IMG/VR virus record: IMGVR_UViG_3300024496_000014
DNA from: an uncultured virus (IMG/VR IMGVR_UViG_3300024496_000014)
Lineage: Duplodnaviria > Heunggongvirae > Uroviricota > Caudoviricetes
Reading direction: 5' to 3' (one strand)
DNA: 64,000 nt
Positions 2,217 to 55,459 of the stretch are shown in pieces; the first letter of the stretch is position 1, and each line of letters begins with the position of its first letter. The position numbers and the translations under genes were made by a program. The notes under the pieces were generated by a model. It did not search any database. It was given only the letters and a program-made list of their open reading frames with translations, and was not told where the DNA came from.

Positions 2217-2332
2217 TACGAAACTACAAGCATTACTAGCAAGTATAGTCTTAGTCTTGGTCTACTGGCTGTTTTGGATCATAACACATTAAATACTTGT
2301 ATAACAACAAACAACTACGCAGGAGCGTGTAT

Positions 2333-3994: not shown

Positions 3995-4001
3995 CTTGAG
4001 A

Positions 4002-4034: not shown

Positions 4035-4301
4035 CTTGTCCAAACGGCTGTGATCGTGTACAATATGCATTTAAACAAGGACAGCAATGACAGCACTACA
4101 GCAAAAGTTCTACGCTGCGTTAGCCTCGCTACAGCAGCACACAAATTTAGATGACGAAGAACAGCAAGACGCAATTGCTGCACTCGCGCAGCTAATCGAG
4201 GATCACGTCAAATAACCCTAGGCCCTCTAGGGTCTTAGACAAAATTGGTTGACATTTTGGCGCAGAGATCGTACAATATACATATGTTGAAGGAGCGGCG
4301 A

Positions 4302-4622
4302 ATGCGAGCAAAGAGATCAGATCGTAATCACATCATCTATGAACTACGTGTTAACGGTGAGAACTACATTGGTGTCACAGCCAAGACTGAATCAACTATT
4401 AATAAGAGTGTTCGCGCTCGTGCTGCCAAGCACTTCTATCGTGCCAAAACAGAAACTAAGAATTGGCTGCTTTGCTCAGCTCTACGCAAGCTCAACAGCA
4501 AAGAAGAAATTGAAATCATTGTTCACGAGATTGTTCGTGGCAAAGCCCTGGCCCATAAGCGCGAAGTAGAAATCCGCAGACTGGTAGGCCCTACACTAAA
4601 CACAGACACACGAGGAGACTAA
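4302..4622 (+). CDS. GIY-YIG-like nuclease domain protein
   Basis: IIYELRVNGENYIGVT, conserved R..H and distal E..LN; AAGGAGCG RBS. Confidence 0.65.
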   Translation: MRAKRSDRNHIIYELRVNGENYIGVTAKTESTINKSVRARAAKHFYRAKTETKNWLLCSALRKLNSKEEIEIIVHEIVRGKALAHKREVEIRRLVGPTLNTDTRGD

Positions 4623-4623
4623 C

Positions 4624-4878
4624 ATGGACTTGACCGTAGAAATGTATCGTATAGATCGTCGCTGCAAAGCGGGCCGAGTACTAGTAATGAAGCAGGACTA
4701 CACAGACGTGAGCTGGGCCCAAATGGAGCGCATGTACCCACGTCGTCCACGCTACATCGTAGAGTTTCACGAGACTTGGGTTACAAAGACTAACCTTATG
4801 ACGGGCTTGCCCTATCAGGAACGTTACGATACCCCACATTGCTGTTCAGCAGCCAGCGAGACCTACTGGAGCATGTAG
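4624..4878 (+). CDS. Conserved phage hypothetical protein
   Basis: ORF, GGAG RBS; C-terminal TPHCCSAASETYWSM motif. Confidence 0.65.
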   Translation: MDLTVEMYRIDRRCKAGRVLVMKQDYTDVSWAQMERMYPRRPRYIVEFHETWVTKTNLMTGLPYQERYDTPHCCSAASETYWSM

Positions 4879-4938
4879 GGGTTGACAACTAGGAATTTTG
4901 GCAGTATAATACAGGCTTACAACGTTAAGGAGCGACCT

Positions 4939-5115
4939 ATGACTAACCCAATCCCTTCTAGCAACATTTGGCACACACCCGCAGATCTCAACGAGCTGCA
5001 GGATATGATCAATCAGTTCACAGGCCAGGAAGCTGCGCTGGCTGCACACGTGATGATGTTGACCCTGAACACCTGCCACAAATTAGTCGATGAAGCTATC
5101 AAGGAGGCCGCATGA
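4939..5115 (+). CDS. Hypothetical protein
   Basis: Promoter at 4882, AAGGAGCGA RBS. Confidence 0.65.
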   Translation: MTNPIPSSNIWHTPADLNELQDMINQFTGQEAALAAHVMMLTLNTCHKLVDEAIKEAA

Positions 5116-5477
5116 GGTACTGGGACGAACTGCTGCGCGAGCAGCGTAATGGTCTAACCGTGATCGTGGACAAGACCTGGGAAGACTGCTCTATTCGCGA
5201 TCTCTTTGATGAAAGCTGCTGTGATGTAGAGGACCTGGAACGTAAGGTTAACAGGGGCGATTTGGATTGGTTTATGCTCAGAGCTCGCGTCATGTACAAT
5301 GATCTGGAACTGGGCTCAGAGATCTGTGGAGGGTTCCTCTACGAAGATGCTCGCGATGTGCTGCGTGATGGTATGGCTGACGAGATGATCTGGCAAGCAG
5401 AGGAAGAAGCCAAACGACAATTACCCGGCCTTATTGAAGGGTTATTGCGTGTAGAGGTTGACAAATTGGCTGCGTGA
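5112..5477 (+). CDS. Hypothetical acidic protein
   Basis: AAGGAGG RBS, ATGA overlap with upstream stop. Confidence 0.7.
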   Translation: MRYWDELLREQRNGLTVIVDKTWEDCSIRDLFDESCCDVEDLERKVNRGDLDWFMLRARVMYNDLELGSEICGGFLYEDARDVLRDGMADEMIWQAEEEAKRQLPGLIEGLLRVEVDKLAA

Positions 5478-5513
5478 GCATACAATAGAGACTTAGCAAC
5501 AAAGGAGCGCGAT

Positions 5514-5852
5514 ATGCAGACACTTTTTAGCACAGCAGGCGACGGCTTGTGGAGCAACGTAGCAAAGCCTGTACACATTGTAGACATGCAACTTGCCTAC
5601 ATTAACGACGAGAGAGATTTTGGCGAGCTGCGTGTTTACTTTAACACTAAGTTTTGGGACGTTAACAAAGACGGTCTCATTTACACAGACAGCAACTTTA
5701 TTGAAGAACTGCGCAATTTTTTAATTGCACAAGAACTAACTGACGACTGCGACTACAGCGAGCAAGGCATGCAGGGAGACAACTACGTTAGCTTAGACGT
5801 GGGAGAGGGCTTTATTGCTGCGTGGGATGCAAAGTTTAACTTGTTTGCATAA
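5514..5852 (+). CDS. Hypothetical protein
   Basis: Own promoter and AAGGAGCG RBS. Confidence 0.72.
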   Translation: MQTLFSTAGDGLWSNVAKPVHIVDMQLAYINDERDFGELRVYFNTKFWDVNKDGLIYTDSNFIEELRNFLIAQELTDDCDYSEQGMQGDNYVSLDVGEGFIAAWDAKFNLFA

Positions 5853-5924
5853 GCACAAAACGGGGGTTGACAACAGCCCCCGTTTATAGTACAATAGACA
5901 CACATTAACACAAAGGAGCGTGAA

Positions 5925-6347
5925 ATGGCTACTCGAAGCACTATTGCAATGGAGCAACCCGACGGTCGCGTAATGCAGATCTACTGCCACTGGGACGGTT
6001 ACCTTGATCACAACGGAGAGATCCTTCAGGAGCACTATCGTGATCGCGCTAAGGTTTTGGCACTCATGTATCTGGGCGATATCAGCTCCTTAGCTCCTAG
6101 CATCGGAGAACCGCACGATTGGGACAACTGCCCTGAGGGTGTCTGCAACGCCTACGGACGCGATCGTGGCGAATCGGGCTGTGAAGCTCGTGTGTTCAAG
6201 GACTTTGAGGACTACAAGGCCAACCACCAGTACGAAGAATACGAGTATATCTTCCGTTCGGACGATCAGTGGTATGTTTCCGAATACAGCCGAGCCTACC
6301 GCGCACTTGAGCAGGTGCTGGCAGAAGCAGAAACCCTAGAGGATTAA
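5925..6347 (+). CDS. Conserved phage protein (MATRS...IYCHWDGY family)
   Basis: Recognisable motif; own promoter and RBS. Confidence 0.72.
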   Translation: MATRSTIAMEQPDGRVMQIYCHWDGYLDHNGEILQEHYRDRAKVLALMYLGDISSLAPSIGEPHDWDNCPEGVCNAYGRDRGESGCEARVFKDFEDYKANHQYEEYEYIFRSDDQWYVSEYSRAYRALEQVLAEAETLED

Positions 6348-6428
6348 GGGTTATTACTGAATGGGGTTGACAACAGCCTCATTTGGTAATATAATAGAGG
6401 TATGTTCAACAAATGCATAGGAGCGAAA

Positions 6429-7502
6429 ATGCCAGCAGTAATTGAGATTCGTGAGGGTTCGTATAAGATCCGTGGCTCAGATGTGAGCATGGCCGGTAAC
6501 CGTTTCGAACTAGTAGAGCAATACAAAGAAGGTGCTCAGGGTGGTTATGTAACCGTAGAAGGTGGCTCTGTACAGCCTGCTAACCCTGGCATTCCAGATC
6601 GTAAGATCCGTATTCGTTGCAGTTCAGCACAAAGTTACATGATTGTCGCCGGTGAAGTGCCAGCAATGCCCGCAGGTGATAAAAGTTTGGAGCAGATTAA
6701 AATTTCAGATAATGCCGTAGCACACGAAACGGACGAGCAGATCATCGAACGTCTTCGTAACCGTTTTGACGTGCTCAAAGATATGACCAAAGCAGTCAAA
6801 GAAGGTACCGTGCGAGCTATGATCGTCACAGGCCCTCCAGGCGTGGGCAAGAGCTTTGGTGTAGAAGAAGTACTAAGCAAGGACGATCTCTTTGATATGA
6901 TGGGTCAGCGCAAGCCCAAATATGAGATTGTCAAAGGCGCAATGTCAGCAGTGGGTCTGTACAGCAAGCTCTATCACTACAGCGAAAAAGGCAATGTTAT
7001 CGTGTTTGATGACTGCGACTCTGTGCTGTTGGATGACCTTAGCCTTAATATTTTGAAGGCTGCTCTGGACTCTAGCAAGAAGCGTACTATCTCTTGGAAC
7101 ACTGACAGCCGTGTTCTGCGTTCAGAAGGAGTGCCAGATCGCTTTGAATTTAAAGCAGGCGCTATCTTTATCACTAACATCAAGTTTGAGAATGTGCGTT
7201 CTAAGAAACTGCAGGATCACCTTGCCGCTCTTGAAAGCCGTTGCCACTACATTGATCTTCAAATGGACACAGATCGCGAAAAGGTCTTGCGCATTAAGCA
7301 GATCACCCAAGATGGCATGTTGGACAGCTACGAGTTTGAAGACTGCGTTAAGGATGAGATCATTGATTACATTCTTGAAAAACGAGCACAAATGCGTGAG
7401 CTGAGCCTGCGTACGGTACTCAAGGTAGCAGACCTGCGCAAGAGCTTTCCTACAAATTGGAAGAGCATGGCAGAAGTTACCGTTATGAAGCGAGGTGCCT
7501 AA
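6429..7502 (+). CDS. AAA+ ATPase
   Basis: Walker A GPPGVGKS, Walker B VIVFDDCD, sensor IFITN, Arg finger ALESR. Confidence 0.85.
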   Translation: MPAVIEIREGSYKIRGSDVSMAGNRFELVEQYKEGAQGGYVTVEGGSVQPANPGIPDRKIRIRCSSAQSYMIVAGEVPAMPAGDKSLEQIKISDNAVAHETDEQIIERLRNRFDVLKDMTKAVKEGTVRAMIVTGPPGVGKSFGVEEVLSKDDLFDMMGQRKPKYEIVKGAMSAVGLYSKLYHYSEKGNVIVFDDCDSVLLDDLSLNILKAALDSSKKRTISWNTDSRVLRSEGVPDRFEFKAGAIFITNIKFENVRSKKLQDHLAALESRCHYIDLQMDTDREKVLRIKQITQDGMLDSYEFEDCVKDEIIDYILEKRAQMRELSLRTVLKVADLRKSFPTNWKSMAEVTVMKRGA

Positions 7503-7744
7503 TGGAAGGCCCGTCTAAGACCTGTACTTGGATTGGGCCCGAGCAGGACCCTTTGAAGCACTGGCCCATTCATTACTGCGGGTGTCCTAGTGTTCAAGGG
7601 TCTAGCTACTGCGCTGATCACTACTGGAAGGTCTATGCTCGAGGCACTTCAGTTAACGGCCGTCGACGTGAACGTGCCATAGAGCAAGAGATTCAACAAC
7701 TTAAACAAGCACAAGAGCTTGAGGAGTATGAAAATGAAAACTAA
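7502..7744 (+). CDS. GcrA C-terminal-like zinc-binding protein
   Basis: CTWIG..DP..YCG.P...GSSYCADH...Y resembles the GcrA CxWPxGDP..FCG..YCxxH pattern. Confidence 0.55.
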   Translation: MEGPSKTCTWIGPEQDPLKHWPIHYCGCPSVQGSSYCADHYWKVYARGTSVNGRRRERAIEQEIQQLKQAQELEEYENEN

Positions 7745-7934
7745 CATCTTTACAATTGCCCTGCTGGCGCTTGTAATCGTATTCTTTTTTGCCGTAGGTC
7801 CTATCCTGGTAATTTGGAGTATGAATACACTATTCCCCGTGTTGGCCATTCCGTATACGTTTTGGACATGGTTAAGCGTGGTCTTGCTCGGCGCATTCTT
7901 TCGAGCAAATGTTTCCATTAAACGGAAAGATTGA
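7728..7934 (+). CDS. Small membrane protein
   Basis: Two hydrophobic segments; GAGGAG RBS. Confidence 0.65.
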   Translation: MKMKTNIFTIALLALVIVFFFAVGPILVIWSMNTLFPVLAIPYTFWTWLSVVLLGAFFRANVSIKRKD

Positions 7935-8014
7935 GGTTGCTATTTTACAACAAGAATGCTACTATATTGACACGCTGTGGAACACAGCCATATAACATAA
8001 AGGAAAACACAGAC

Positions 8015-8290
8015 ATGAAACGTATCTCTAAAGACTCAAAGACTTTTAAGATTTTTACTGCACTACAAAATGGTGACAAACTAACTGCAAGCCAAGCTGA
8101 GAAGCGTTTTGGCGTAAAGAACCTGGCTGCTGAAGCAAGCCGTCTCCGCCAAGCTGGTTATGCTGTTTATGCTAACTCTCGCAAGGCAGGTAATGGTGTT
8201 ACCGTTACTGAGTATGAACTAGGCCGTCCTTCACGCGAGATCGTTGCTCTAGGCTACTTAGCTCGTAACATGGGCATGACATTGGCTTAA
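8015..8290 (+). CDS. Winged helix-turn-helix DNA-binding protein
   Basis: LQNGDKLTASQAEKRFGVKNLAAEASRLRQAGYAV wHTH pattern. Confidence 0.7.
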   Translation: MKRISKDSKTFKIFTALQNGDKLTASQAEKRFGVKNLAAEASRLRQAGYAVYANSRKAGNGVTVTEYELGRPSREIVALGYLARNMGMTLA

Positions 8291-8299
8291 TAGGTCGCT

Positions 8300-8338
8300 C
8301 CACAAAACCAAGCCGATTCGCTCCCGGGGCGGTTTTGG
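8300..8338 (+). ncRNA. 3'-UTR hairpin with ATTCGCTCC loop (copy 1)
   Basis: AAAACC/GGTTTT outer stem, CCG/CGG closing stem; loop identical to copy at 14254. Confidence 0.55.
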
Positions 8339-8366
8339 AATAGGGTCCTAAGGGCCCTATTTTTTT
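8339..8366 (+). terminator. Intrinsic terminator
   Basis: AATAGGGTCC-TAA-GGGCCCTATT then T-run. Confidence 0.82.
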
Positions 8367-8373
8367 GGCCGTT

Positions 8374-8405
8374 TGTTGCAAAAAAGCCACAGGCCGGCAC
8401 TCTCC
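8374..8405. promoter_or_regulatory. Palindromic operator TGT(T/G)G(C/T)-N6-GC(A/C)ACA with adjacent GAGTGCCGG; other copies at 10325-10356 and 11638-11671
   Basis: Three composite copies read directly. Confidence 0.65.
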
Positions 8406-8461
8406 AAAATGGTTGACAGAACTGCTGTTTGATGGTATAATAGAGTTATTGTTAAGGAGCG

Positions 8462-9109
8462 ATGATGAGCACATTTACAGCAGATCAAGTTTGGGGCCTA
8501 GCTGTTAGGGCTGATACACAGAATGGCGGCTACTGCAAAGAGCCTGTATTCGCTGCTACCGCTACACACGGGATCGATTACAATAACGTGATCAAACAAG
8601 CCAACAAGGTTCTGGTCAAGAACTGGCTCAGAGAGAATGCTCAGCCTACAGCAGAAGAGATCACTCTTGGCCAAGAGTATCGTAACTATTTCAAAACATT
8701 CACCCTCAAAGCACTCACTGGCAAGATCAATGACTTTGAGACCACAGCTATGAAGATTGCAGCCAAAGACGAGTTCACTGGCCGTGATATGTTGGACTTT
8801 GCTGTTGTCAGCTGTTTACCCAGCGTAGCTCGTCGTGATAAGGCCCAAACAGAGCTCAAGCGAGAGATCTATCAAAGCGAGCAACTCTCCGGCGCTGTAG
8901 GTGATGAGATCGTAGGGGAGATCGAAGTGATCCGCACACGATTCAACCCTGAATACAACAAGTATCGCATCACTGCTCGTATGGGTGAGAGCTTTATTGA
9001 TTTTTGGTACAAGGATGATGTCAAAGGCACTATCCGTATCAAGGGCAAGATCAAGAATGTTCGTGGCGATAAAACAACACAGCTCAACTATGTTAAAAAA
9101 GTTGGTTGA
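8462..9109 (+). CDS. Conserved phage protein with possible C-terminal OB-fold
   Basis: ORF ends IRIKGKIK...TQLNYVK; own promoter and RBS. Confidence 0.6.
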   Translation: MMSTFTADQVWGLAVRADTQNGGYCKEPVFAATATHGIDYNNVIKQANKVLVKNWLRENAQPTAEEITLGQEYRNYFKTFTLKALTGKINDFETTAMKIAAKDEFTGRDMLDFAVVSCLPSVARRDKAQTELKREIYQSEQLSGAVGDEIVGEIEVIRTRFNPEYNKYRITARMGESFIDFWYKDDVKGTIRIKGKIKNVRGDKTTQLNYVKKVG

Positions 9110-9186
9110 CAACTGCACCAAGAGGTGCTACAATAATGATACTGGGAAAGTAATTGTTTTAACTCTTTTTATTAGCGAGGTCTAGA

Positions 9187-10272
9187 ATGGCAAAAGCACA
9201 AGACGTTTCCGTCCGTCAAGTTGGCCCTAAGGGTGCCAAAAAAGCAATCCGTCACGCAATTAAAATGCGTCGTCCTGTATTCCTGTGGGGCCCTCCAGGT
9301 ATTGGTAAGTCCGATCTCGTGAAGCAGATCGGTGATGATTCCAACCGTGAGGTTATTGATGTGCGCCTAGCACTTTGGGAACCCACCGACATCAAAGGTA
9401 TTCCGTATTACAACGCAGACCAGGGCAAGATGGTTTGGGCTCCTCCCGCAGAACTGCCCATTGACCCAGAGTCCACTGCTATCATCTTCTTGGATGAATT
9501 GAACTCTGCTCCTCCTGCTGTTCAGGCCGCGGCCTATCAGTTGGTGCTGAACCGTCGTGTTGGTACCTATGTTCTGCCTAAGGGTGTTGACGTAGTCGCC
9601 GCTGGTAACCGTGAAGGTGACCGTGGTGTTACCTATCGTATGCCTGCTCCGTTGGCTAACCGCTTCCTGCACTTGGAAATGAAGGTGGACTTTGATGACT
9701 GGCAAGATTGGGCTACCCTTAACAAGGTGCATCCTGAGGTTGTAGGTTATGTGGGTTTTGCCAAGCAAGACTTGTATGACTTCGATCCTAAGAGCCCTAG
9801 CAAGTCATTTGCTACTCCTCGTTCTTGGAGTTTCGTCAGCGACCTGTTAGGTGATGACGGTGTTGACGAAGATACTTTGTCTACATTGGTAAGTGGTGCT
9901 ATTGGTGACGGCTTGGCTGTTAAGTTTATGGCTCACCGTAAGATTGCTGGCAAATTGCCTAAGGCAGAAGACATCCTTATTGGCAAGGTCAAGGACCTTC
10001 AGATCAAGGAAGTGTCAGCGATGTATTCTTTGACCGTTTCATTGTGCTACGAGTTGAAAGACCGTGCAGAGAAAAAGGTTAAAGATTGGGATGCTCAGGC
10101 AGACAACTTCTTCCGCTACATGATGGACAATTTCCCAACTGAGATTGTGGTCATGGGTGCTAAGACTGCTCTTACCAACTACGACTTGCCGTTGGACGCT
10201 ACAAAGATGAAGAGCTTTGACGAGTTCCACAAGCGTTTTGGTAAGTATGTTTTGAAAGCGATGGAGAATTAA
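9187..10272 (+). CDS. MoxR-like AAA+ ATPase
   Basis: GPPGIGKS, IIFLDELN, AAGNR, PLANRF, TPRSW motifs. Confidence 0.9.
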   Translation: MAKAQDVSVRQVGPKGAKKAIRHAIKMRRPVFLWGPPGIGKSDLVKQIGDDSNREVIDVRLALWEPTDIKGIPYYNADQGKMVWAPPAELPIDPESTAIIFLDELNSAPPAVQAAAYQLVLNRRVGTYVLPKGVDVVAAGNREGDRGVTYRMPAPLANRFLHLEMKVDFDDWQDWATLNKVHPEVVGYVGFAKQDLYDFDPKSPSKSFATPRSWSFVSDLLGDDGVDEDTLSTLVSGAIGDGLAVKFMAHRKIAGKLPKAEDILIGKVKDLQIKEVSAMYSLTVSLCYELKDRAEKKVKDWDAQADNFFRYMMDNFPTEIVVMGAKTALTNYDLPLDATKMKSFDEFHKRFGKYVLKAMEN

Positions 10273-10429
10273 GACCTCGCCCATCGCCGGGCGGGGGCTC
10301 ACCCAGGGCTTCCGCCCACCTTTTGGAGTGCCGGGCGGTGTTGTAAATACGCAACATCGTCCGGTTTCTTTTTGGTTGACAAACCCGGATCCTGGTGCTA
10401 TAATATACACATACTAAGGAGAGCGACTA

Positions 10430-11638
10430 ATGTCTACAAACATCGTTGATAAATTAACTACTGCACGGGTCGGTCTATTGCTCAAAGCACCGTTCTTTGG
10501 CAACATGGCAACTCGTATGCGTTTAGTCTGTGCTGACGACTGGTGCCCTACTGCGGCGACCAATGGCCGTGACTTTTATTACAACACAAAGTTCATCGAA
10601 AAACTTTCAGAGAAAAAACTAGAGTTCCTGTTTGGTCACGAGATCCTTCACTGCGTGTTTGATCACTTTGGCCGTGTAGGTAGCCGTGATCGTCAACTTT
10701 CTAACATCGCACAGGACTTTGCTGTAAACCAAATCCTTGTAGACGAGCGTATTGGTGAGAAGATCACTGAGGTTAAGATCTGTTATGATCCTAAGTTCCG
10801 TGGACTTGCTTGGGAAGAAATCTACGATATTCTGTATGAAAAAGCAGAGAAGATTCCTATGGATCAACTGATGAAAGAGTTGGGCGATCTGTTGGACGAG
10901 CACATTAAGGAACAAGAGGGTGCTGGCTCAGAAGATGACAAGACCAAAGACGGTAAGAGCAAGCCTAGCCTTAGCAAAGAAGAAGCAGAACGCATCAAGC
11001 AAGAGATCAAAGAAGCAATGATCCAAAGTGCCGCGGCCGCTGGTGCAGGCAAGACTCCTGCAGGCATTATGCGTATGATTAAGTCTATGACTGAGCCTAA
11101 GATGGACTGGCGTCAGTTGGTGCAACAAGAGATCCAAAGCATTGTTCGCAACGACTACTCCTTCCAGCGTGTTAATCGCAAGAGTATGCACTCAGGCGCA
11201 ATCTTGCCAGGCATGAAAGAAGCAACTACCATTGACGTGGCTATTGCTGTTGACATGAGTGGTAGTATTGGTGAAGAAGATGCCAGCACATTCCTTTCGG
11301 AGATCAAAGGCATCATGGACCAATACGAGGACTTCAAGATCAACCTGTGGTGCTTTGACACAGAGATCTATAACCCACAAGAGATCACTCATGACAACTC
11401 ACATGACTTGCTTGAGTATGAACCTCAAGGTGGCGGTGGCACAGACTTTGATGTCAACTTTACCTACATGGAAGAGAATGACATTCGCCCTAAGAAGTTC
11501 ATTATGTTCACAGACGGCTATCCCTGTGGTAGTTGGGGTCCTGAGGACTACTGCGACACAATCTTTATCGTTAAGGGCAATACACAAGCAGAGGCGCCCT
11601 TTGGTCAAACGGTGATCTACGAAAAAGAGGCGGGCTAG
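10430..11638 (+). CDS. Metallopeptidase-vWA protein (DUF2201-like), MoxR partner
   Basis: TAATNG, HEILH zincin motif, MIDAS DMSGS, GGGGTDF, FTDGY. Confidence 0.88.
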   Translation: MSTNIVDKLTTARVGLLLKAPFFGNMATRMRLVCADDWCPTAATNGRDFYYNTKFIEKLSEKKLEFLFGHEILHCVFDHFGRVGSRDRQLSNIAQDFAVNQILVDERIGEKITEVKICYDPKFRGLAWEEIYDILYEKAEKIPMDQLMKELGDLLDEHIKEQEGAGSEDDKTKDGKSKPSLSKEEAERIKQEIKEAMIQSAAAAGAGKTPAGIMRMIKSMTEPKMDWRQLVQQEIQSIVRNDYSFQRVNRKSMHSGAILPGMKEATTIDVAIAVDMSGSIGEEDASTFLSEIKGIMDQYEDFKINLWCFDTEIYNPQEITHDNSHDLLEYEPQGGGGTDFDVNFTYMEENDIRPKKFIMFTDGYPCGSWGPEDYCDTIFIVKGNTQAEAPFGQTVIYEKEAG

Positions 11639-11781
11639 GAGAGTGCCGGGGGGTGTGGCTAAAAAGCCACACTTCCACCAAAGGCCCCGCTGCTACACGT
11701 ATGCACGTATATAGATTATGGTTGACAGATAGATAATTTGGCCTTATAATACATATACACAGACACAGAAAGGGGCGGTAA

Positions 11782-11925
11782 ATGGAACTAGTAATTGCAT
11801 TTGTCCTTGGGCTCATAGTAATGGACTTAATGTGGGCCTGGCGCTTGGGCATCCCTCAGATGCTTTGGGCACGTTGGAAGTATCGCAAAGTCCTTAAACA
11901 AATGTCAGAACAGGAGCAATCATGA
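11782..11925 (+). CDS. Small membrane protein (not in ORF track)
   Basis: 47-aa ORF MELVIAFVLG... downstream of promoter at 11722. Confidence 0.55.
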   Translation: MELVIAFVLGLIVMDLMWAWRLGIPQMLWARWKYRKVLKQMSEQEQS

Positions 11926-12050
11926 AAGTATTCATCGCAGGTACAATCTTTGGTCTCGTAGTGGCTACCGTAGGATTATCGGGCATCGCTAAGATCTTCG
12001 ATAATGGGGTTGCCAAAGTCCAGGAAGTATCTAAAGAAGCTGCGAAGTAA
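11922..12050 (+). CDS. Small membrane protein (not in ORF track)
   Basis: 42-aa ORF MKVFIAGTIF..., AGGAG RBS, ATGA overlap. Confidence 0.55.
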   Translation: MKVFIAGTIFGLVVATVGLSGIAKIFDNGVAKVQEVSKEAAK

Positions 12051-12259
12051 TGCCTAGATACACGTTCTGGCGCAATTCTATAATCTGCGAAGTCTACGAA
12101 CTTGAAGCAGGTTCAGAAGAGGAAGCACGTGAAAAGCTCATGAATGGAGAAGTGGACCCAATGACCGAAGAATGGGTTGATTGGGCCACTGACAACTTCG
12201 AGCTGGAAGACGTGGAAGATGAATTGGTAACATTCTTAAAATCAAAGGAAACAACATGA
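12050..12259 (+). CDS. Hypothetical acidic protein
   Basis: ORF coupled to neighbours. Confidence 0.6.
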   Translation: MPRYTFWRNSIICEVYELEAGSEEEAREKLMNGEVDPMTEEWVDWATDNFELEDVEDELVTFLKSKETT

Positions 12260-12447
12260 CTTTTGGTATGATCGTTGAAGATCCCTTTTATGATGAAGAT
12301 GGTGTACTCATTGACGAGGATGCTGATTGGGAAGATGTTGCAGACCCGGGCGACCTAGTCTACAACGAAGACATCGGCGAATGGTTGGACAAAGAGCTAG
12401 CTGCTCACGATCGCACCTACAGCCCATTCGATACAATCAACAGCTAA
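12256..12447 (+). CDS. Hypothetical very acidic protein
   Basis: AAGGA RBS; D/E-rich. Confidence 0.6.
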   Translation: MTFGMIVEDPFYDEDGVLIDEDADWEDVADPGDLVYNEDIGEWLDKELAAHDRTYSPFDTINS

Positions 12448-12516
12448 CGTACATCATTTTGGTTGACAACTTGGCTTTTTGGTGTTAAACTATAGGCATA
12501 GTGAAAGGAGCCAGCT

Positions 12517-12720
12517 GTGAATCAAAATGAATTTGAATACCTGAAGCGAGCCGTTGATGCATTGGGATCGTCAGAGACAACTCCGATGGCCCGTGTCAAG
12601 ATCTTAAGGACGATGGAGCAGATCGCCGGACGCTGTGCCGTGGTGATCGAGAGGGAGTTCCAAGACCGCGTAGATCAGAACTTGGCCAATGCACATTTGG
12701 TTGACCTTTTGAGAAAATGA
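12517..12720 (+). CDS. Hypothetical protein
   Basis: Promoter at 12463, AAGGAG RBS, GTG start. Confidence 0.6.
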   Translation: MNQNEFEYLKRAVDALGSSETTPMARVKILRTMEQIAGRCAVVIEREFQDRVDQNLANAHLVDLLRK

Positions 12721-12754
12721 TTGTATAATTTTAACACTAACTTAAGGAGCGAAT

Positions 12755-13381
12755 ATGCCTAATTGGTGCAACAACAACTTGACGCTGGAGCATGATGATC
12801 CAGCAATGATTACCCGTGCTAAAGAAGCACTTGATCGTGGAGAGTTCCTGCAGGAGTTTATTCCTGTGCCCAAAGAACTCACAGAGACCATGGCAGGATC
12901 CTACGGGGATGATGCCAAACAAAAGGATCTGGAAGCACAGATGAAAGCCAATGTGGCCAAATATGGCTACAGCAACTGGTATGACTTCTGCGTGGGTGAA
13001 TGGGGAACCAAATGGGATGTAGGCGGTGATGGACAAAGCGACATCCACCCAGACGGTAAGAGTCTATTCACTTCTTTTGATTCAGCATGGTCACCACCCG
13101 TGAATGCTTATCAGAAGTTGGAACAACTTGGCTTCCGTGTGAACGCAATGTTCTACGAATCCGGTATGGCATTTGCTGGTATTTACGAAGATGGCAACTG
13201 CGAGGACTTTAGCCTAGAAGGCATGAGTGCCGATGAGATCGAGCAGAACTATCCAGAGTTGGACGAAGCATTCTGCATCGCCGAGGCTATCCGTGAATTC
13301 CAGGAAGAGGACGAAGAGCTCACAGAGTGGATCAAGGATGGTGTTGAGCAGAACAAGAAACTAGGACTTGTTTCAGAATGA
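12755..13381 (+). CDS. DUF1281/YubB-like ferredoxin-fold protein
   Basis: MPNWCNN, WYDF...WGTKWD, FDSAWSPP, FYESG motifs. Confidence 0.8.
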   Translation: MPNWCNNNLTLEHDDPAMITRAKEALDRGEFLQEFIPVPKELTETMAGSYGDDAKQKDLEAQMKANVAKYGYSNWYDFCVGEWGTKWDVGGDGQSDIHPDGKSLFTSFDSAWSPPVNAYQKLEQLGFRVNAMFYESGMAFAGIYEDGNCEDFSLEGMSADEIEQNYPELDEAFCIAEAIREFQEEDEELTEWIKDGVEQNKKLGLVSE

Positions 13382-13677
13382 TGCACATTGTTAAACTCGA
13401 CAAGAGATACGATGGTTATGGAAGATTTAGCCATCGTGTCGAGTTTATCAGTTATGGCGCAGGTGCGAGGCTTACAGATCAAAAGAATTGGATTAAGTCT
13501 CGCAACTACTTGTGGACGCAATTCGGTCCGAGTGCCGAATTGCACCTAGCTCGCCCAGAGTTATTCGATGGGGTCCAACCAAAATGGGCCTGGGATGATT
13601 CTAAGAGTGCTATATATTTGAAAGACGAATCTTACACAATGTTCGTTTTGAAATGGGAGTCATGGCAAAATGCCTAG
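13378..13677 (+). CDS. Hypothetical protein
   Basis: ORF overlapping upstream stop; W..FGPS motif. Confidence 0.6.
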   Translation: MMHIVKLDKRYDGYGRFSHRVEFISYGAGARLTDQKNWIKSRNYLWTQFGPSAELHLARPELFDGVQPKWAWDDSKSAIYLKDESYTMFVLKWESWQNA

Positions 13678-13864
13678 AGAGTTTAACTTCAGTTTTCACG
13701 TGGTCTGCGCCGGGGACGGCAAGGCAGACGTGGGCCGAGTCGAAGAAATGATCGATTTGGCCATGCAGGATCTGGTCTACGACGACGAGTTCATCGCCGC
13801 CTTGGACGAGAAGGACAGCGTTACTATTCAAGTAATTCCGCAATTTGGACAAACAAATGGTTGA
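13670..13864 (+). CDS. Hypothetical protein
   Basis: ORF. Confidence 0.55.
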   Translation: MPREFNFSFHVVCAGDGKADVGRVEEMIDLAMQDLVYDDEFIAALDEKDSVTIQVIPQFGQTNG

Positions 13865-13945
13865 CAAACTTGAATAGTGATGCTACATTATTAACATGCC
13901 CAATAGGCATATCTTTAACACACACACTTTTTGGAGAACTTTAAA

Positions 13946-14248
13946 ATGGCTACAGATAAGAAATTTGCGGTTGCTGGTGTTTCGACACTGGAAGGTAAGA
14001 CCAAGCTTCGTTTCGCTAACGATGTTATGCGCATCAAGATCTTGGCAAAGAACGGTCACAAGGATGTTGAGCTCGTTGAGCTGCCATCAGAGATGACCAA
14101 GGCTGAGGCTGTACAACACCTCAAGAGCGTTGGTTTCGGCTCAGGCAATGCTGCTGTACAAGCTGCGATCGCCTACGCTGAGAAGAAGAATCCAGCCCCT
14201 AAAGCTGTTAAGACTACTGCCGCGAAGGCAGAGGCTGTTACCGCTTAA
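13946..14248 (+). CDS. Small basic protein with Ala/Lys-rich tail (possible nucleic-acid binding)
   Basis: GGAGA RBS; KLRFAND...KNGH..V.LVELP..MTK.EA pattern; strongly biased codons. Confidence 0.65.
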   Translation: MATDKKFAVAGVSTLEGKTKLRFANDVMRIKILAKNGHKDVELVELPSEMTKAEAVQHLKSVGFGSGNAAVQAAIAYAEKKNPAPKAVKTTAAKAEAVTA

Positions 14249-14275
14249 ATCCGATTCGCTCCCGGTAGCGGTAAC
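14237..14275 (+). ncRNA. 3'-end hairpin with ATTCGCTCC loop (copy 2)
   Basis: Perfect 9-bp GTTACCGCT/AGCGGTAAC stem plus CCG/CGG closing stem. Confidence 0.58.
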
Positions 14276-14280
14276 CTTGG

Positions 14281-14317
14281 GCCCTAGTATGCACACGTAT
14301 ACTAGGGCGTTTTTTTT
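14281..14317 (+). terminator. Intrinsic terminator
   Basis: GCCCTAGTAT/ATACTAGGGC stem then T8. Confidence 0.85.
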
Positions 14318-14393
14318 GACTTCGGTTGACAACTGGATTAACTGATCATATAATAGTATTAACGAATTGGAGCACAGGAGCTTAAATACACAC

Positions 14394-14720
14394 ATGAGCA
14401 AATTAGAATACCTTGCAAGACCTCTGGTAGCATTCGATGCTTATAACAAAGATCATAGGCGCTACTACGCAGAGTTCCTAGAATACGGTGGATGGGGGCG
14501 ATGTCCAGTTCGCTTTATTTGTCCCAGTGATTCCGGTTCAGATCTAACACTAATGATCAAGAACCACCTAACTGAATACTACATTGATCGCGAGTTTGGG
14601 GGCGGCAAACTGCAACAGCTCAAAAGCGAAGAACTCAGCGAAACCGCAGACGAAATGTATCGAAGAGCAGGGAAACTTCGTAAGGAAGCAGCCGCCCTGT
14701 TGAATCCCAGGAGAACCTAA
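14394..14720 (+). CDS. Conserved phage hypothetical protein
   Basis: RPLVAFDAYNKDHR...WGRCPVRF motif. Confidence 0.62.
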   Translation: MSKLEYLARPLVAFDAYNKDHRRYYAEFLEYGGWGRCPVRFICPSDSGSDLTLMIKNHLTEYYIDREFGGGKLQQLKSEELSETADEMYRRAGKLRKEAAALLNPRRT

Positions 14721-15106
14721 TGAGCGACCTTGATGTAACCATGATCATCCTTTACGGCCTTGGCCTACTTTCAGGCTGGTGGGCATCTAAGATCTTTCAT
14801 CTGCACCTACTACGCAGCATCCTGAAGGATCTTGGGGTGAGTCAGCAGGATCTACTCGCACTCCTTAACCGATCAGAAGAAGAATCATCCGATGATCCCG
14901 AGCTGGATCAGATCGATATCAAAGTTGAGAAGCATAGTAACACACTCTATGCGTTTCGTAAAGACAACGATCAGTTCCTAGGGCAGGGCAACAGCAAGGA
15001 GCAGCTGATCGAAGCCATGGCGCAGCGTATGAAGAATGTAAGGTTGATCGTGGTTGAGGGCCGTGAATACATGGAGTCCAAAACGGTTGACACGACCGCG
15101 GTTTGA
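14720..15106 (+). CDS. Membrane-anchored hypothetical protein
   Basis: N-terminal TM segment; FLGQG motif. Confidence 0.62.
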   Translation: MSDLDVTMIILYGLGLLSGWWASKIFHLHLLRSILKDLGVSQQDLLALLNRSEEESSDDPELDQIDIKVEKHSNTLYAFRKDNDQFLGQGNSKEQLIEAMAQRMKNVRLIVVEGREYMESKTVDTTAV

Positions 15107-15121
15107 GCTTACAATTGAGTT

Positions 15122-15673
15122 ATGAAAATTACAGAACTCCAGAACCTATACCGCGCAGGCCAGATCATCCGCAAGGCAGATCACGCAGACAAGTTGGACA
15201 TCCAATTGGATCCCACAATGACTCGCGAGCTGTTTCGACAAGAAGTTGGCCGTGTTTACTTCATCGTAGTCAACGGTGAAATCAAGAAGATTGGCGGCTC
15301 ACAGGCCAAGGGCGGACTCAAGGGAACCTTAGGGGCCTACTTCACTGGTTTTGCCAAGGGCATGAGCGCCAGGACCTATTGCGTATGGAACTTCATGCGC
15401 CAGCAGATCGATCAAGGGCACACGGTTGAGATCTATGTTACATTTGCTCCCCTGGTTGAAGCAACCATTCCAGGTCCCCTGGGACATGTAACCGTACACA
15501 TTCCTGTAGACTATCATACCATTGAGAAGAGCTACGTGGATCACTTCGTGCTGGTCGAGAGCAAGCATCCTTACTTGAACATGCAGGAAAGTGCGGGCCG
15601 TTGGGAAGATACGGGGCTTTTAGAAGGCTATCACGGGCTTTGGGTTCCACAACAAGAAACCCTAGCAGCCTAA
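15122..15673 (+). CDS. Putative GIY-YIG-superfamily endonuclease
   Basis: GRVYFIVVNGEIKKIGGS, distal E and P.LN; ATG lies 6 nt after a -10 box (possibly leaderless). Confidence 0.5.
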   Translation: MKITELQNLYRAGQIIRKADHADKLDIQLDPTMTRELFRQEVGRVYFIVVNGEIKKIGGSQAKGGLKGTLGAYFTGFAKGMSARTYCVWNFMRQQIDQGHTVEIYVTFAPLVEATIPGPLGHVTVHIPVDYHTIEKSYVDHFVLVESKHPYLNMQESAGRWEDTGLLEGYHGLWVPQQETLAA

Positions 15674-15752
15674 GGGTTATTCAAAAAAGTGGTTGACAAC
15701 AGCCTCTAGATCGCATATAATACAAGCTCAACAAACAACTTAGGAGCGAAAC

Positions 15753-16106
15753 ATGGAAGCACAAGCACGTGAGTATTTTGTCCGTCGTCTTAACGAAGTA
15801 GCACAAGAAAAAGTGCAGGCCAAAGCAGTAGAACTTTACGGCGCAAGTGGCCGTCCAGAACAGCCTACTTGGGGCATGGTGTTTGAGGGCATTAAATCCG
15901 GCGAGATTACCCTTAAAGCAGACAAGGTGGACTATACGGGTCCTTACCTCAACCCTACGGACGTGGAGTGGCCTGCTATGGAAGCCAAAAAGGCAGAGCT
16001 GGAAGCATATCGCAAGTTGGTAGCCGCTGAGAAGCAACGGGCTATGGACGCTGTCTATTTGGACGAGAGCGCACAAGAAGCCCTTAAGGCTTTTGAAGCA
16101 ATTTAA
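15753..16106 (+). CDS. Hypothetical protein
   Basis: Own promoter, AGGAGCGAA RBS. Confidence 0.7.
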   Translation: MEAQAREYFVRRLNEVAQEKVQAKAVELYGASGRPEQPTWGMVFEGIKSGEITLKADKVDYTGPYLNPTDVEWPAMEAKKAELEAYRKLVAAEKQRAMDAVYLDESAQEALKAFEAI

Positions 16107-16193
16107 ACAACAAAAGCCCTACACTCCGTAGGGCTTTTTCTTGACCTTTTGGCACTTTGGACATATAATACACTTACACAGAAGGAGAAGTGT

Positions 16194-16376
16194 ATGAGAG
16201 TAGAAGTCAAAAGCCTATACAGAGTTCAATGCACAGAGTATGAAAGAGGCTATGGTCAAAGGGACATGGGTGTGGTGTTCTTTGACACAGAAGAAGAAGC
16301 CAAGCAGTTCTGCCTAGAATACGCCTCGGGTGATAGCGAATGCTACTTCCGAGCAAGCTACGAAAAGATCAACTAA
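16194..16376 (+). CDS. Hypothetical protein
   Basis: Promoter at 16141, AAGGAG RBS. Confidence 0.62.
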   Translation: MRVEVKSLYRVQCTEYERGYGQRDMGVVFFDTEEEAKQFCLEYASGDSECYFRASYEKIN

Positions 16377-16392
16377 TTCTAGAAAGCCTAAA

Positions 16393-16629
16393 ATGAAAAG
16401 CAAAGACACACAGATCTACAAGAACATTGGCTCTATCCAGGCAGTACAGGGTGACGAAGGCCGCTACTACTTCTACACTCACTTTGCTACAGGTAACACC
16501 TGCGACGAAGACACTATCAAAGGTGCCAAAGAGATGTTGGATTGGGAAGAAAAGAACCATCAAGAAGTACAGGCTGCGATCCGTGTGCTTCAGGGTCGAG
16601 GTTACAGAGTATTCAAAGAGGTTTGTTAA
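16393..16629 (+). CDS. Hypothetical protein
   Basis: ORF. Confidence 0.55.
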   Translation: MKSKDTQIYKNIGSIQAVQGDEGRYYFYTHFATGNTCDEDTIKGAKEMLDWEEKNHQEVQAAIRVLQGRGYRVFKEVC

Positions 16630-16868
16630 TGGGATGGGTAGTCTACGATGCTCGTACGGGGCACATGCAAAAGTATTACAAGCTGGCCCGTACAGCCAAG
16701 AGTATCGTCACGCAGCACAACACAGAACGAATCTATGAGGACTGGATCTATCGTCCTCAGAGCACTTGGGCCTGCTGCTCCTATGCAGACTACGAAGGGA
16801 TCTTAATGGGTCTGCGTGGGGAAGCGTTTAAGATGTGGCAGTTTGTTAAGAATAACCCGCAGAGCTAA
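16629..16868 (+). CDS. Hypothetical protein
   Basis: GAGG RBS, TAATG coupling. Confidence 0.55.
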   Translation: MGWVVYDARTGHMQKYYKLARTAKSIVTQHNTERIYEDWIYRPQSTWACCSYADYEGILMGLRGEAFKMWQFVKNNPQS

Positions 16869-16937
16869 AGGGTCTTTCTTTTTGGTTGACCTTTGGGCCT
16901 TTTGGTGCTATACTATAGGTATAGTAAGGAGCGTGAA

Positions 16938-17186
16938 ATGATAACAGAAAAACAACGTGTTGTAAATGCCCTAAAGGGTTGGCAGTTCATCCGTGGAACC
17001 CATGGTTGCTTGTATGATCGTGGCTCAGCAGATTCCTACTACGGCCGTCCACGTCAACCTCACTACGGTGGAGTGGGAGGCGATTCCGGCCGCCGAGTCT
17101 CGGTCAACGATGCTGCATCCGTGGCCGAATACTTGGCAGGCTACGACTACAACGAGCGTTATGGAGACAAAAAGAACTATGATTAA
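16938..17186 (+). CDS. Conserved phage protein (HG..YDRGSADSYYGR family)
   Basis: Motif; promoter at 16886, AAGGAGCG RBS. Confidence 0.68.
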   Translation: MITEKQRVVNALKGWQFIRGTHGCLYDRGSADSYYGRPRQPHYGGVGGDSGRRVSVNDAASVAEYLAGYDYNERYGDKKNYD

Positions 17187-17403
17187 TCATGGCCTACAAT
17201 GGCTGGGCACAGCCGCTCTGATCTCTATGTATATTGTGATGAGCTTCTTTCCTGAGCGATATCCGCTGAATATCCTCTTAGGATTACTGGGAGGTCTATG
17301 CTATTTTGCGTGGTCGTATCGTGTGGCAAATAAGCCACAGATGATCGTTAACTTCGCAGGAATAGCCGTGTGTGCCGCAGGGTTATTTCGTTATTTTGAT
17401 TGA
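17179..17403 (+). CDS. Small membrane protein (about 3 TM)
   Basis: Hydrophobic ORF, GGAG RBS. Confidence 0.6.
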   Translation: MINHGLQWLGTAALISMYIVMSFFPERYPLNILLGLLGGLCYFAWSYRVANKPQMIVNFAGIAVCAAGLFRYFD

Positions 17404-17460
17404 CACTCAGGCACTTTGGCTATACAATTAACACATACGCTAAACAACTAGGAGCAGAAA

Positions 17461-17643
17461 ATGGTTACACAAGCACAGGCAATGTTTGTATTTGTAGTAG
17501 GACTACTAATCACAATGTTGGGCACAGGTGGTGTAGAAGCCAGCATCTCTAACCTAGAACTTCTACAAGGTCTAGCAGTGGCCATCACTGGCCTAGGCTG
17601 TATGGGCTGTGGTGTGCTCATGCTTAGGCAAGCCGAGGACTAA
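17461..17643 (+). CDS. Small membrane protein
   Basis: Promoter at 17400, AGGAGC RBS, two TM segments. Confidence 0.62.
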   Translation: MVTQAQAMFVFVVGLLITMLGTGGVEASISNLELLQGLAVAITGLGCMGCGVLMLRQAED

Positions 17644-17644
17644 T

Positions 17645-17956
17645 ATGGAAGCCCTAGTTGAAACAACTGGGGGCCAGTTCCCCGCGCACACATATCTACT
17701 AGACGGTACTACCCTAGTAGCCTATGTAAAGGTCAACGAAACTACGCCCGTCTATTTCAAAAGCGGTATCAAGGGCTTTGATAAGCGTGGTAGGCAGTTC
17801 GTTAAGGGTAACATCAACTTATTCAAAGTAAAGGCAACTAATGACACAAGATCTGTCCAAGGCTCAAAAGGCCAAGTCTACTCAGTCAACGACGCAGAGA
17901 AAACCTGTACCTGTCCAGGATTTACATTTAGAGGTACCTGCAAACACTTGGGCTAA
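17645..17956 (+). CDS. SWIM zinc-finger protein
   Basis: GSKGQVYSV...CTCPGFTFRGTCKH. Confidence 0.78.
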   Translation: MEALVETTGGQFPAHTYLLDGTTLVAYVKVNETTPVYFKSGIKGFDKRGRQFVKGNINLFKVKATNDTRSVQGSKGQVYSVNDAEKTCTCPGFTFRGTCKHLG

Positions 17957-17977
17957 CATGATAAAGGTATTGATGCA

Positions 17978-18205
17978 ATGAGCATACAACTACACGGACT
18001 GACCCGCCAGCAGTATCAGATCGCTGACATGATCTGGAGCTGTGAATCACAAGAGGATGTTCAACGCTTGATCAATAACCTGCCCGCAGAGTATAAGAAG
18101 GACGCTGTGGTCATACACGATCTAATGATAGCAGCAGTCATGGACCAACATATGGAGATCACTGAAGATGTTCGTGCGCTTATTCATAGTATTGCTAGCC
18201 GCTAG
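17978..18205 (+). CDS. Hypothetical protein
   Basis: ORF. Confidence 0.6.
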   Translation: MSIQLHGLTRQQYQIADMIWSCESQEDVQRLINNLPAEYKKDAVVIHDLMIAAVMDQHMEITEDVRALIHSIASR

Positions 18206-18374: not shown

Positions 18375-18536
18375 TGGTCGGTCGGTGGTCGGTGGTGAGG
18401 GGTAACATATGTTAGTAAGTACTAACAAGCTAGTAAGGGGTAGCAAATCACCACCCTGAAAAGAAAAGTACTGCCCTTAAAAATTTTGCGCGGCCAATTT
18501 TTTCCCCTGTAGACCCATTTTGCTGTAAATACACTC

Positions 18537-54719: not shown

Positions 54720-55459
54720 TATTTCGCTCCTTTAGCTTCTGCTAATCGTTGCATTAGTTCTGCACGAATTTGAGATCTTAAATCGCCCTCAAATTTTTGT
54801 TTTTGCATTGGGTTATCGCCACCAGCAACTTTAGGATATGTTCCTTTTGATTTGTTTAAATCGTTGCCGTCGTGTGTTGAAAATGATGCATCTTTAGTTT
54901 CTGGCTCTGAACTTCCAACTGAATTACCAAATGCCTCATCTTCTTTATCTTCGTCGTCGTCTTTTTCTTCTTTGTCGTCCATTTCTTCTGGTTCAGGTTT
55001 TTCGCCTTCTGGACCTTCATGTTCAGGACTACCGTCTGGGCCGGGACCTTCTTTTTCTTTATCACCGTCAATATCGATATCGATAACTTTTGGTTCGTCA
55101 CCACCGCCGCCAAGGCCAGGTAATCCCGGAGGATTCATTTTGTCATCACCTGGTTTATCAAAGTCAGGTAACATTTTTAGTGGGGGTAATTCTGGTTTAA
55201 TGCTAGCGATAGAAGGACCTGGAGGTGTTAAAGATGGTAAAGTTGGATCTGATTTAATTGTATCAGGATTGACTTTAGTAATTAACTTTAATAAGTCCTC
55301 AATATTATCCATGCCTTGAGCATTTAGGTTAACACTCATGCTTGGAGGTGTCGTTGGAGGAGTTTGCATTGCTGGAGCAGGCATGTTCATTGGCTCACCG
55401 CACTCTTCAACTGGCCTGTCTAATTCTTGCATTTTTGTTAGCAATTCATGAAAATTCAT
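54719..55459 (-). CDS. Low-complexity acidic/Pro-rich putative prohead core protein
   Basis: MNFHELL start; DLNKSK..YP..AGGDNPM motif. Confidence 0.5.
   Translation of the reverse strand: MNFHELLTKMQELDRPVEECGEPMNMPAPAMQTPPTTPPSMSVNLNAQGMDNIEDLLKLITKVNPDTIKSDPTLPSLTPPGPSIASIKPELPPLKMLPDFDKPGDDKMNPPGLPGLGGGGDEPKVIDIDIDGDKEKEGPGPDGSPEHEGPEGEKPEPEEMDDKEEKDDDEDKEDEAFGNSVGSSEPETKDASFSTHDGNDLNKSKGTYPKVAGGDNPMQKQKFEGDLRSQIRAELMQRLAEAKGAK

Follow-up and report, generated by a model that had tools for sequence, protein, structure and literature searches.

A conserved 3'-UTR hairpin of uncultured jumbo phages whose loop is complementary to an extended ribosome-binding site

The sequence analysed here (the window) is a stretch of 64,000 nt from the IMG/VR record IMGVR_UViG_3300024496_000014, an uncultured jumbo myovirus. 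In this window, two 3' untranslated regions (3' UTRs) carry hairpins that present the same 9-nt loop, AUUCGCUCC, and this loop is complementary to a ribosome-binding site (RBS), GGAGCGA(A), found in front of early genes of the same phage. The hairpin is a real, conserved, structured and uncatalogued RNA element. Judging from sequence, the loop might act in trans by pairing with the RBS, and we give this reading a probability of about 45%. It is very unlikely that the perfect complementarity of 8-9 nt (locally 15 nt) between these two independently conserved elements is a coincidence.

The 15-mer CCGATTCGCTCCCGG, which contains the loop, occurs on the plus strand exactly at 8313-8327 and 14251-14265, as the initial annotation of this stretch had described. 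There is no third site in the window even when up to two mismatches are allowed, and two matches were found in 0 of 100 dinucleotide shuffles. The whole record of 219,444 bp contains the same two copies only, and a search of it with the motif model R1 returned just these two (copy 2 with 65.9 bits). Weaker R1 matches in the same genome (E ≥ 0.0136) were inspected and discarded. Each 15-mer forms a 3-bp apical stem and the 9-nt loop atop a lower stem, and the lower stems of the two copies are unrelated in sequence, again as annotated (Table 1). Copy 1 follows a gene for a 91-aa winged helix-turn-helix (wHTH) protein and copy 2 a gene for a 100-aa protein; these are called the carrier genes below. 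The 5' half of the lower stem of copy 2 consists of the last codons of the 100-aa gene. Each copy lies between a stop codon (TAA 8288-8290 followed by TAG for copy 1, TAA 14246-14248 for copy 2) and an intrinsic terminator, an arrangement that the annotation had also pointed out. Both hairpins are separate from the terminator: a distinct terminator hairpin follows each of them. Copy 2 is predicted to fold far more strongly than shuffled sequences, with z-scores of -4.70 and -3.34 (hairpin), which were reached by 0 of 200 shuffles, and the probability that its loop is unpaired is 0.98. The additional, unstructured TCGCTCC noted in the annotation is present upstream of copy 1. It recurs in the close relatives L003 and L081 and in G009, and as ACGCTCC, one letter off, in L026. 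At the position homologous to copy 1, the lower stems differ among the relatives.

Conservation of the motif extends well beyond this genome. An exact scan over 2.9 million viral contigs gave at least 123 loci, compared with 13 for a control pattern consisting of the same letters reversed. The search of related phage genomes for the loop, which the initial annotation had suggested as a check, thus showed it to be conserved. The counts in this paragraph refer to the matches listed. By eye, 28 loci were excluded, mostly G+C-rich coding DNA plus RBS-type loci, and 90 distinct hairpin-type instances were kept. Three settings recur among them. In group (a) the motif stands behind homologues of the wHTH gene and in group (b) behind homologues of the 100-aa gene, in both cases with a separate terminator next. 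In group (c) it stands behind a P-loop protein of about 290 aa, as the apex of the terminator hairpin itself; a second copy is often present upstream, sometimes overlapping the stop codon. Tandem copies 60-76 nt apart in one 3' UTR were observed at L043, L058, L061 and G006:C1:99090-99167, the second copy forming the terminator. In 72 of the 118 distinct contexts of 75 nt, the helix flanking the motif is longer than in 95% of its own shuffles, and these helices are built from a wide variety of sequences. A T run follows within 90 nt in 83 of the 90 hairpin-type instances. The distances from motif to T run are bimodal, 4-14 nt or 29-47 nt, the latter corresponding to a separate terminator; 29 of the 83 belong to the shorter class, and in these the motif is the apex of the terminator. 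An open reading frame (ORF) of at least 60 codons on the same strand ends within 160 nt upstream in all 58 evaluable hairpin-type instances, that is, those with enough upstream DNA.

Covariation of the stems was analysed on relatives that had been fetched via the 100-aa protein, which makes this sample independent of the loop sequence. In an alignment of 26 distinct homologous 3' UTRs, 81.6% of the cells of a two-helix structure form pairs, and in 9 of the 11 pairs both partners vary. None of 500 shuffles attained the covariation score of 0.337; structures slid by 1-3 columns scored 0.05-0.20. The invariant columns are the stop-codon letters T15 and A17, the loop letters TCGCTC, and G33, and the flanks vary. 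The putative seed is therefore more conserved than its flanks, as for small RNAs (sRNAs) derived from 3' UTRs. Conservation of loop and fold with differing stems is what the annotation had expected of a functional RNA. Apical stem variants that keep the loop include CCG/CGG, TCG/CGA, CAG/CTG, TCAG/CTGA, CTG/CAG, GTG/CAC, CTAGG/CCTAG and CTGG/CCAG, so that loops of 7-9 nt stand on stems of 3-6 bp. Where the first loop letter is G, it pairs with the C at the loop's end, so that 7 nt, UUCGCUC, stay in the loop, and this core is nearly invariant. The few deviations from the loop sequence are ACUCGCUCC, AUUCGCUCU and, at L198, AUUCGCUUCC, the last of which disrupts the core. An E-value-threshold scan of ten motif loci (29,329 bases) against Rfam 15 matched no family; the sole hit, NsiR1 (E=0.58; 24.8 bits, the gathering score being 39), fell on the terminator of copy 2. 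Literature searches with the motif letters and with phage sRNA and Shine-Dalgarno (SD) terms returned primers and unrelated papers, and no description of the motif was found in them. Likenesses to the lambda nut site (boxA/boxB) and to the tRNA T-arm were considered and rejected: the conserved A of the T-loop is missing, A-C is the usual closing pair, and the surroundings showed no antiterminator context.

As to the sequence complementary to the loop, GGAGCG was confirmed at all ten RBS positions that had been listed for it, and GAGCGA at 10421 (Table 1). The early region contains a set of 18 near-consensus sigma70-type promoters (plus strand, window 2997-21500), eight of which lead into GGAGCG, or nine when GAGCGA is counted. 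With a crude gene call, CG follows GGAG in 8 of 22 early RBSs and in 4 of 61 others (Fisher p=0.0019). The predicted duplex with the loop has an energy of -11 to -15.5 kcal/mol in 12 of 20 early leaders. It should be mentioned that a late-region gene just upstream of the terminase large subunit shares the sequence, as the annotation had cautioned: GGAGCGAAA precedes its minus-strand ATG at 54719.

In the relatives, 362 distinct promoter units from their loci were taken as the leader sample. GGAG was found in 250 of these leaders, GGAGCG in 154, GAGCGA in 141 and GGAGCGAA in 82; the commonest 9-mers are GGAGCGAAC (42) and GGAGCGAAA (22). The end of the RBS motif is 4.0±0.9 nt away from the start codon. 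CG thus follows GGAG in 154 of 250 cases, compared with about 4% expected from base composition. The canonical anti-SD core, CCUCC, accounts for GGAG and not for CGAA. Moreover, leaders of the GGAGAGCGA type retain GAGCGA next to a separately supplied SD sequence. The 7-8 conserved letters thus correspond exactly to the complement of the loop.

The complementarity is still longer at about ten loci among the listed matches of the exact scan, where the full reverse complement CCGGGAGCGAATCGG stands immediately before a start codon, at several of them behind TAAATA, a late-type promoter. This RBS is a hairpin itself, and both its loop and its stem are complementary to the 3'-UTR hairpin. The genes led by it include those of CsgF-like secreted proteins (Pfam CsgF) and an endonuclease VII. 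The CsgF-like genes (curli, type VIII secretion system) with this 15-nt complement behind TAAATA are at L028:1518-1994 (E=6e-12), L051:1045-1500 on the minus strand (E=4e-18) and L052:1530-2003 (E=4e-9). No CsgF-like homologue was found in the present record, whose completeness is judged to be 62%.

A complete relative of 383 kb shows both elements side by side. Its 15 occurrences of the 8-mer, counted on both strands, comprise 12 RBSs, two tandem 3'-UTR hairpins and one intragenic site, and the control pattern does not occur; seven of the 12 RBSs lie behind consensus early promoters. Hairpin and RBS motif are both present in three further partial records, and neither was found in a distant relative of 158 kb.

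These observations led to the following proposal. The loop would be an antisense seed for an extended SD sequence, GGAGCGA(A), with the core GAGCGAA, which this clade of freshwater jumbo myoviruses places before the majority of its promoter-proximal early genes and before a few later ones. The hairpin would act either within the carrier mRNA or as a stable 3' fragment protected by the terminator. Pairing of the loop with the RBS would cover the ribosome-binding site and occlude the 30S subunit, so that translation would be tuned, most likely lowered. The carriers of the window, which have no target sequence, would escape. The RBS of the wHTH carrier is AAAGGAAA, and among homologues of the 100-aa gene GAGCG occurs in 0 of 64 distinct leaders, whereas the motif is found in the 3' UTR of 44 of the 64. 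Three features argue for a function at the RNA level that is linked to translation, and not for a site in duplex DNA: the loop stays fixed while its stems covary, the element is tied strictly to the transcribed strand, and it is placed at stop and start codons. We infer from sequence the accumulation of an RNA species, its pairing in trans and the repression, as well as the function of the promoters and terminators as predicted.

Leaderless late genes would be left untouched, too. TAAATA, which resembles the late promoter of T4, is followed by an ATG 4-7 nt downstream at 29 of its 144 sites in the whole record, those of terminase (54316), tail tube (58456) and a virion protein included. At 24 sites with the ATG 0-8 nt away, the ORF that begins there has 50 codons or more, and structural genes are among them. 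With such spacing of 4-7 nt, late mRNAs should be leaderless or nearly so, and most late genes appear to be leaderless. Since the carriers are exempt and most late genes are leaderless, a rising level of hairpin RNA could selectively damp the SD-led messages. This might be extended to an RNA-based address system for translation. GAGCGAA would mark a regulon of phage messages and the loop of the early 3' UTRs would read this mark, so that the SD-led early messages are silenced together as hairpin RNA accumulates, while the carrier genes and the leaderless late genes are still translated. The RNA would then take the role of T4 RegA/RegB, and the 15-nt matches between two hairpins at some genes with late promoters (CsgF-like proteins, endonuclease VII) would be dedicated high-affinity targets. 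In this complete form the proposal is speculative and its correctness doubtful.

Several observations weigh against pairing in trans. In every relative found, the loop hardly varies and neither does the RBS, and no compensatory loop/RBS change was observed; where the loop reads ACUCGCUCC or AUUCGCUCU, the RBS has not changed to match. Copy 1 is no better folded than its shuffles (z of -1.54 for 83 nt and +0.15 for the 45-nt hairpin), and when 219 nt are considered, part of its loop is predicted to pair with other positions, the probability of being unpaired falling to 0.31. Most loop matches in this genome are just 6-7 nt long. Carriers and candidate targets alike are under early sigma70-type promoters, and the -10 boxes of the carriers are weaker. 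In group (c), the carrier gene itself has a GGAGCGA RBS; the statement of the initial annotation that the carriers do not use GGAGCG thus holds for the genes of the window (AAAGGAAA and GGAGAA) and for the homologues of the 100-aa gene, but not for this group. In relatives, genes behind late-type TAAATA promoters are led by the target motif as well. The motif is thus not restricted to early genes, which corrects the initial annotation. GAGCGA leaders are only weakly associated with the hairpin within 6-kb loci (143 of 390 leaders compared with 40 of 148; p=0.04, the sequences being phylogenetically non-independent). The reasons for this weakness are that the hairpin may be located in another part of the genome and that the sequences are related. 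The stretch was found in 24 riverine metatranscriptomes, four of which (X1-X4) were compared as contigs, and these show just that it is present; they bridge both terminators, although they may equally well originate from DNA. Finally, the uniform promoter/SD units could result in part from concerted evolution like that of the PeSL cassettes of T4-type phages, and not from selection for pairing.

Alternatively, the loop might be bound by a phage or host RNA-binding protein or by an RNase, and the hairpin would then set the stability, processing or termination of the 3' end, complementarity to the RBS being secondary. An invariant loop on variable stems is a signature of such hairpins too. The motif is also tied closely to terminators, inside the terminator hairpin in the 29 instances mentioned, and it accompanies a few conserved genes of unknown function. 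However, the perfect complementarity of 8-9 nt (15 nt in some relatives) to the RBS of the clade would be left unexplained. In addition, no RNA-binding fold was recognised by Foldseek or VIA in the adjacent 100-aa protein: a fold search with its AF2 model (pLDDT 78.5) gave a best E of 0.71 with Foldseek and a best Z of 4.0 with VIA wide. Recognition by a protein is thus considered unlikely.

The loop might also act in cis. On read-through or polycistronic RNA its partner would be the RBS of the following gene within the same molecule, or else the 5' RBS of its own mRNA; as a result, the downstream gene would rely solely on its own promoter for translation, or the two ends of the mRNA would communicate. 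After copy 1, and likewise after its homologues, GGAGCGA is found without exception at the start of the next gene, about 130-150 nt downstream, the group (c) carrier gene has this RBS itself, and the metatranscriptome contigs that span both terminators would suit read-through if they do not come from DNA, which is equally possible. On the other hand, the next leader after copy 2 has GGAGC only, that after the homologues of copy 2 is often unrelated or leaderless-like, and the carriers of the window have no target. Taken together, these points make pairing in cis rather improbable.

Mimicry of the anti-SD tail of 16S rRNA, by which the loop would be a decoy or competitor for a factor that recognises the tail, or a general SD sponge, seems very improbable. 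At its end the loop has CUCC, with the polarity of the anti-SD core, but the conserved UUCG(C) and the matching CGAA of the leaders exceed the SD core. A generic sponge would have no need of this extension and is disfavoured for this reason. The initial annotation had also offered a decoy for a factor reading the RBS sequence; for that, the loop would have to be a copy of the RBS, whereas it is the complement, so this reading does not fit. Least probable of all is an element at the DNA level, either part of PeSL-like terminator/promoter/SD recombination cassettes or a target of some DNA-binding protein. In double-stranded form, loop and RBS motif amount to one site in two orientations, and the early region is a string of units of stem-loop, consensus promoter and uniform SD like T4-type PeSLs (available part of PMC4122927), but the stems covary around a fixed loop whereas PeSL stem-loops are described there with a conserved stem consensus, the orientation strictly follows the transcribed strand and the stop and start codons, and there are just two copies per genome.

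The 100-aa carrier protein had no match in Pfam or PHROG, a profile search against the PDB gave 0 matches, and tblastn against cultured phages gave none; in the ESM Atlas it falls into unnamed viral clusters only. The other features of the window are collected in Table 1.

Table 1. Features of the window related to the hairpin and to the complementary RBS (loop duplex, predicted energy of pairing with the loop)
Feature	Position	Strand	Remarks
Hairpin copy 1	8303..8337	+	lower stem CAAAACC 8303-8309/GGTTTTG 8331-8337; apical stem CCG 8313-8315/CGG 8325-8327; loop AUUCGCUCC 8316-8324
Hairpin copy 2	14237..14275	+	lower stem GTTACCGCT 14237-14245/AGCGGTAAC 14267-14275; apical stem 14251-14253/14263-14265; loop AUUCGCUCC 14254-14262
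Extra UCGCUCC copy, unstructured	8295..8301	+	directly 3' of stop; probability of being unpaired 0.71
Predicted intrinsic terminator 1	8339..8366 (approximate)	+	11-bp hairpin and U7 in minimum-free-energy fold; not in consensus terminator scan
Predicted intrinsic terminator 2	14281..14317	+	hairpin 14281-14308, 12 pairs, T8 run; consensus scan and fold
Sigma70-type promoter, carrier 1	7967..7996	+	TTGACA-18-TATAAC, 1 mismatch; consensus match only
Carrier gene 1, 91-aa wHTH protein	8015..8290	+	Pfam HTH_39 E=1.4e-7; PHROG 4973; RBS AAAGGAAA without GAGCG
Sigma70-type promoter, carrier 2	13861..13889	+	TTGACA-17-TACATT
Carrier gene 2, 100-aa conserved protein	13946..14248	+	RBS GGAGAA, without GAGCG
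RBS GGAGCG	2322..2327	+	candidate target
RBS GGAGCG	4292..4297	+	promoter 4249; loop duplex -12.2 kcal/mol
RBS GGAGCGA	4929..4935	+	promoter 4882; loop duplex -13.1 kcal/mol
RBS GGAGCG	5504..5509	+	promoter 5458; loop duplex -11.2 kcal/mol
RBS GGAGCG	5915..5920	+	promoter 5867; loop duplex -11.2 kcal/mol
RBS GGAGCGAA, AAA-type ATPase gene	6420..6427	+	promoter 6367; loop duplex -14.1 kcal/mol
Consensus promoter (8413-8441) and RBS GGAGCGATG (8456-8464)	8413..8464	+	gene 8465-9109, next after copy 1
GAGCGA inside RBS AAGGAGAGCGA	10421..10426	+	promoter 10376; loop duplex -11.8 kcal/mol
RBS GGAGCGAAT	12746..12754	+	9/9 complementary to loop; loop duplex -15.5 kcal/mol
RBS GGAGCGAA	15743..15750	+	promoter 15693; loop duplex -14.3 kcal/mol
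RBS GGAGCG	16928..16933	+	promoter 16886; loop duplex -11.2 kcal/mol
RBS GGAGCGAAA, late-region gene (ATG 54719)	54722..54730	-	just upstream of terminase large subunit
TAAATA before ATG, examples	54316, 58456, 52718, 1554, 690, 14383		

Two neighbouring regions should be mentioned. An 80-aa ORF at 7502-7744 (plus strand) overlaps the stop codon of the AAA-type ATPase gene (TAATG). It shows a weak GcrA-like match below the threshold (E=0.008, 17 bits, cutoff 26.9), which may hint at an alphaproteobacterial host. At 9187-11638 (plus strand), a gene for a MoxR/AAA_5-type ATPase (361 aa) is followed by one for a DUF2201 metallopeptidase/VWA protein (402 aa), and this pair is conserved among the early genes of the relatives. 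The full record encodes a tail sheath of 1132 aa, terminase, a DnaB-type helicase, primase and a UvsX-like recombinase. The best match of the terminase large subunit among cultured phages is that of the Pseudomonas jumbo phage PA5oct (54.7% identity), followed by Sinorhizobium and Agrobacterium jumbo phages. No match to cultured phages was found by megablast for the region 7900-14500. PA5oct contains a single TTCGCTCC when both strands are counted, the same level as for the controls, and it is therefore considered to have neither the hairpin nor the RBS motif. The contigs of the four metatranscriptomes branch at the hairpin, within window 8309-8477, into the sequence of related strains; several motif-bearing phages thus co-occur in the same river samples.

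Among known systems, the bacterial sRNAs derived from 3' UTRs, such as CpxQ, SdhX and DapZ, are similar in that the conserved seed of the hairpin lies between a stop codon and the intrinsic terminator of the mRNA itself, and in that the candidate targets, by predicted complementarity, are translation-initiation regions of other mRNAs. Unlike in these sRNAs, the putative phage seed is presented in a hairpin loop, and its targets would be genes of the phage itself through a shared extended SD. [quoted passage not shown] The PeSLs of T4-type phages are cassettes of stem-loop, sigma70 early promoter and SD, which in the available part of PMC4122927 are described as having a conserved stem consensus and a proposed role in DNA recombination. 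The early region of the present phage is similar: units made up of a stem-loop, a near-consensus sigma70 promoter, an SD and a start codon recur along a series of small early ORFs. The two hairpin copies are each followed by a terminator and a consensus promoter. However, unlike the numerous PeSL stem-loops with their conserved stem, the phage loop is invariant throughout the clade, its stems covary, it has two copies per genome, and it complements the SD.

A further likeness is to the antisense RNAs that act by kissing loops, namely CopA/CopT, RNAI/RNAII, IS10 RNA-OUT/RNA-IN and phage P1 c4. YUNR is the U-turn signature of antisense recognition loops, and the UUCG within AUUCGCUCC presumably fits it. 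The short stem with a 7-9-nt YUNR-type loop complementary to the RBS resembles these RNAs, and in the relatives the target CCG-GGAGCGAAU-CGG is also a complementary hairpin. Unlike them, the phage hairpin is not transcribed antisense to its target: its candidate targets lie apart from it, at other loci of the same strand, one loop would serve many of them, and this loop is part of an mRNA's 3' UTR. In T4, the endonuclease RegB and the repressor RegA are proteins that control early mRNAs at GGAG-type ribosome-binding sites. Post-transcriptional control at early phage RBSs would be common to both cases, whereas the candidate effector here is an RNA loop; no homologue of RegA or RegB was found, no search aimed at them having been made.

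To our knowledge, none of CopA, RNAI, RNA-OUT, P1 c4, DicF and RegA/RegB pairs an invariant 3'-UTR loop with a clade-wide extended SD, and the PAK_P3 ncRNAs and the PeSLs do not show this combination either. The phage systems we know of that time or balance expression in such a manner rely on proteins. If the loop does read the ribosome-binding sites of its own phage, this would be the first clade-wide case in virulent phages of an RNA seed that times or balances expression through a shared, phage-specific SD extension, and the 9-nt loop with its 8-nt target could serve as an orthogonal module for translational control. Whatever its mechanism, the hairpin, with about 90 distinct instances among the matches listed and strong stem covariation, constitutes a new and well-supported family of structured RNAs, which is specific to uncultured freshwater jumbo phages and is a candidate for RNA family databases.

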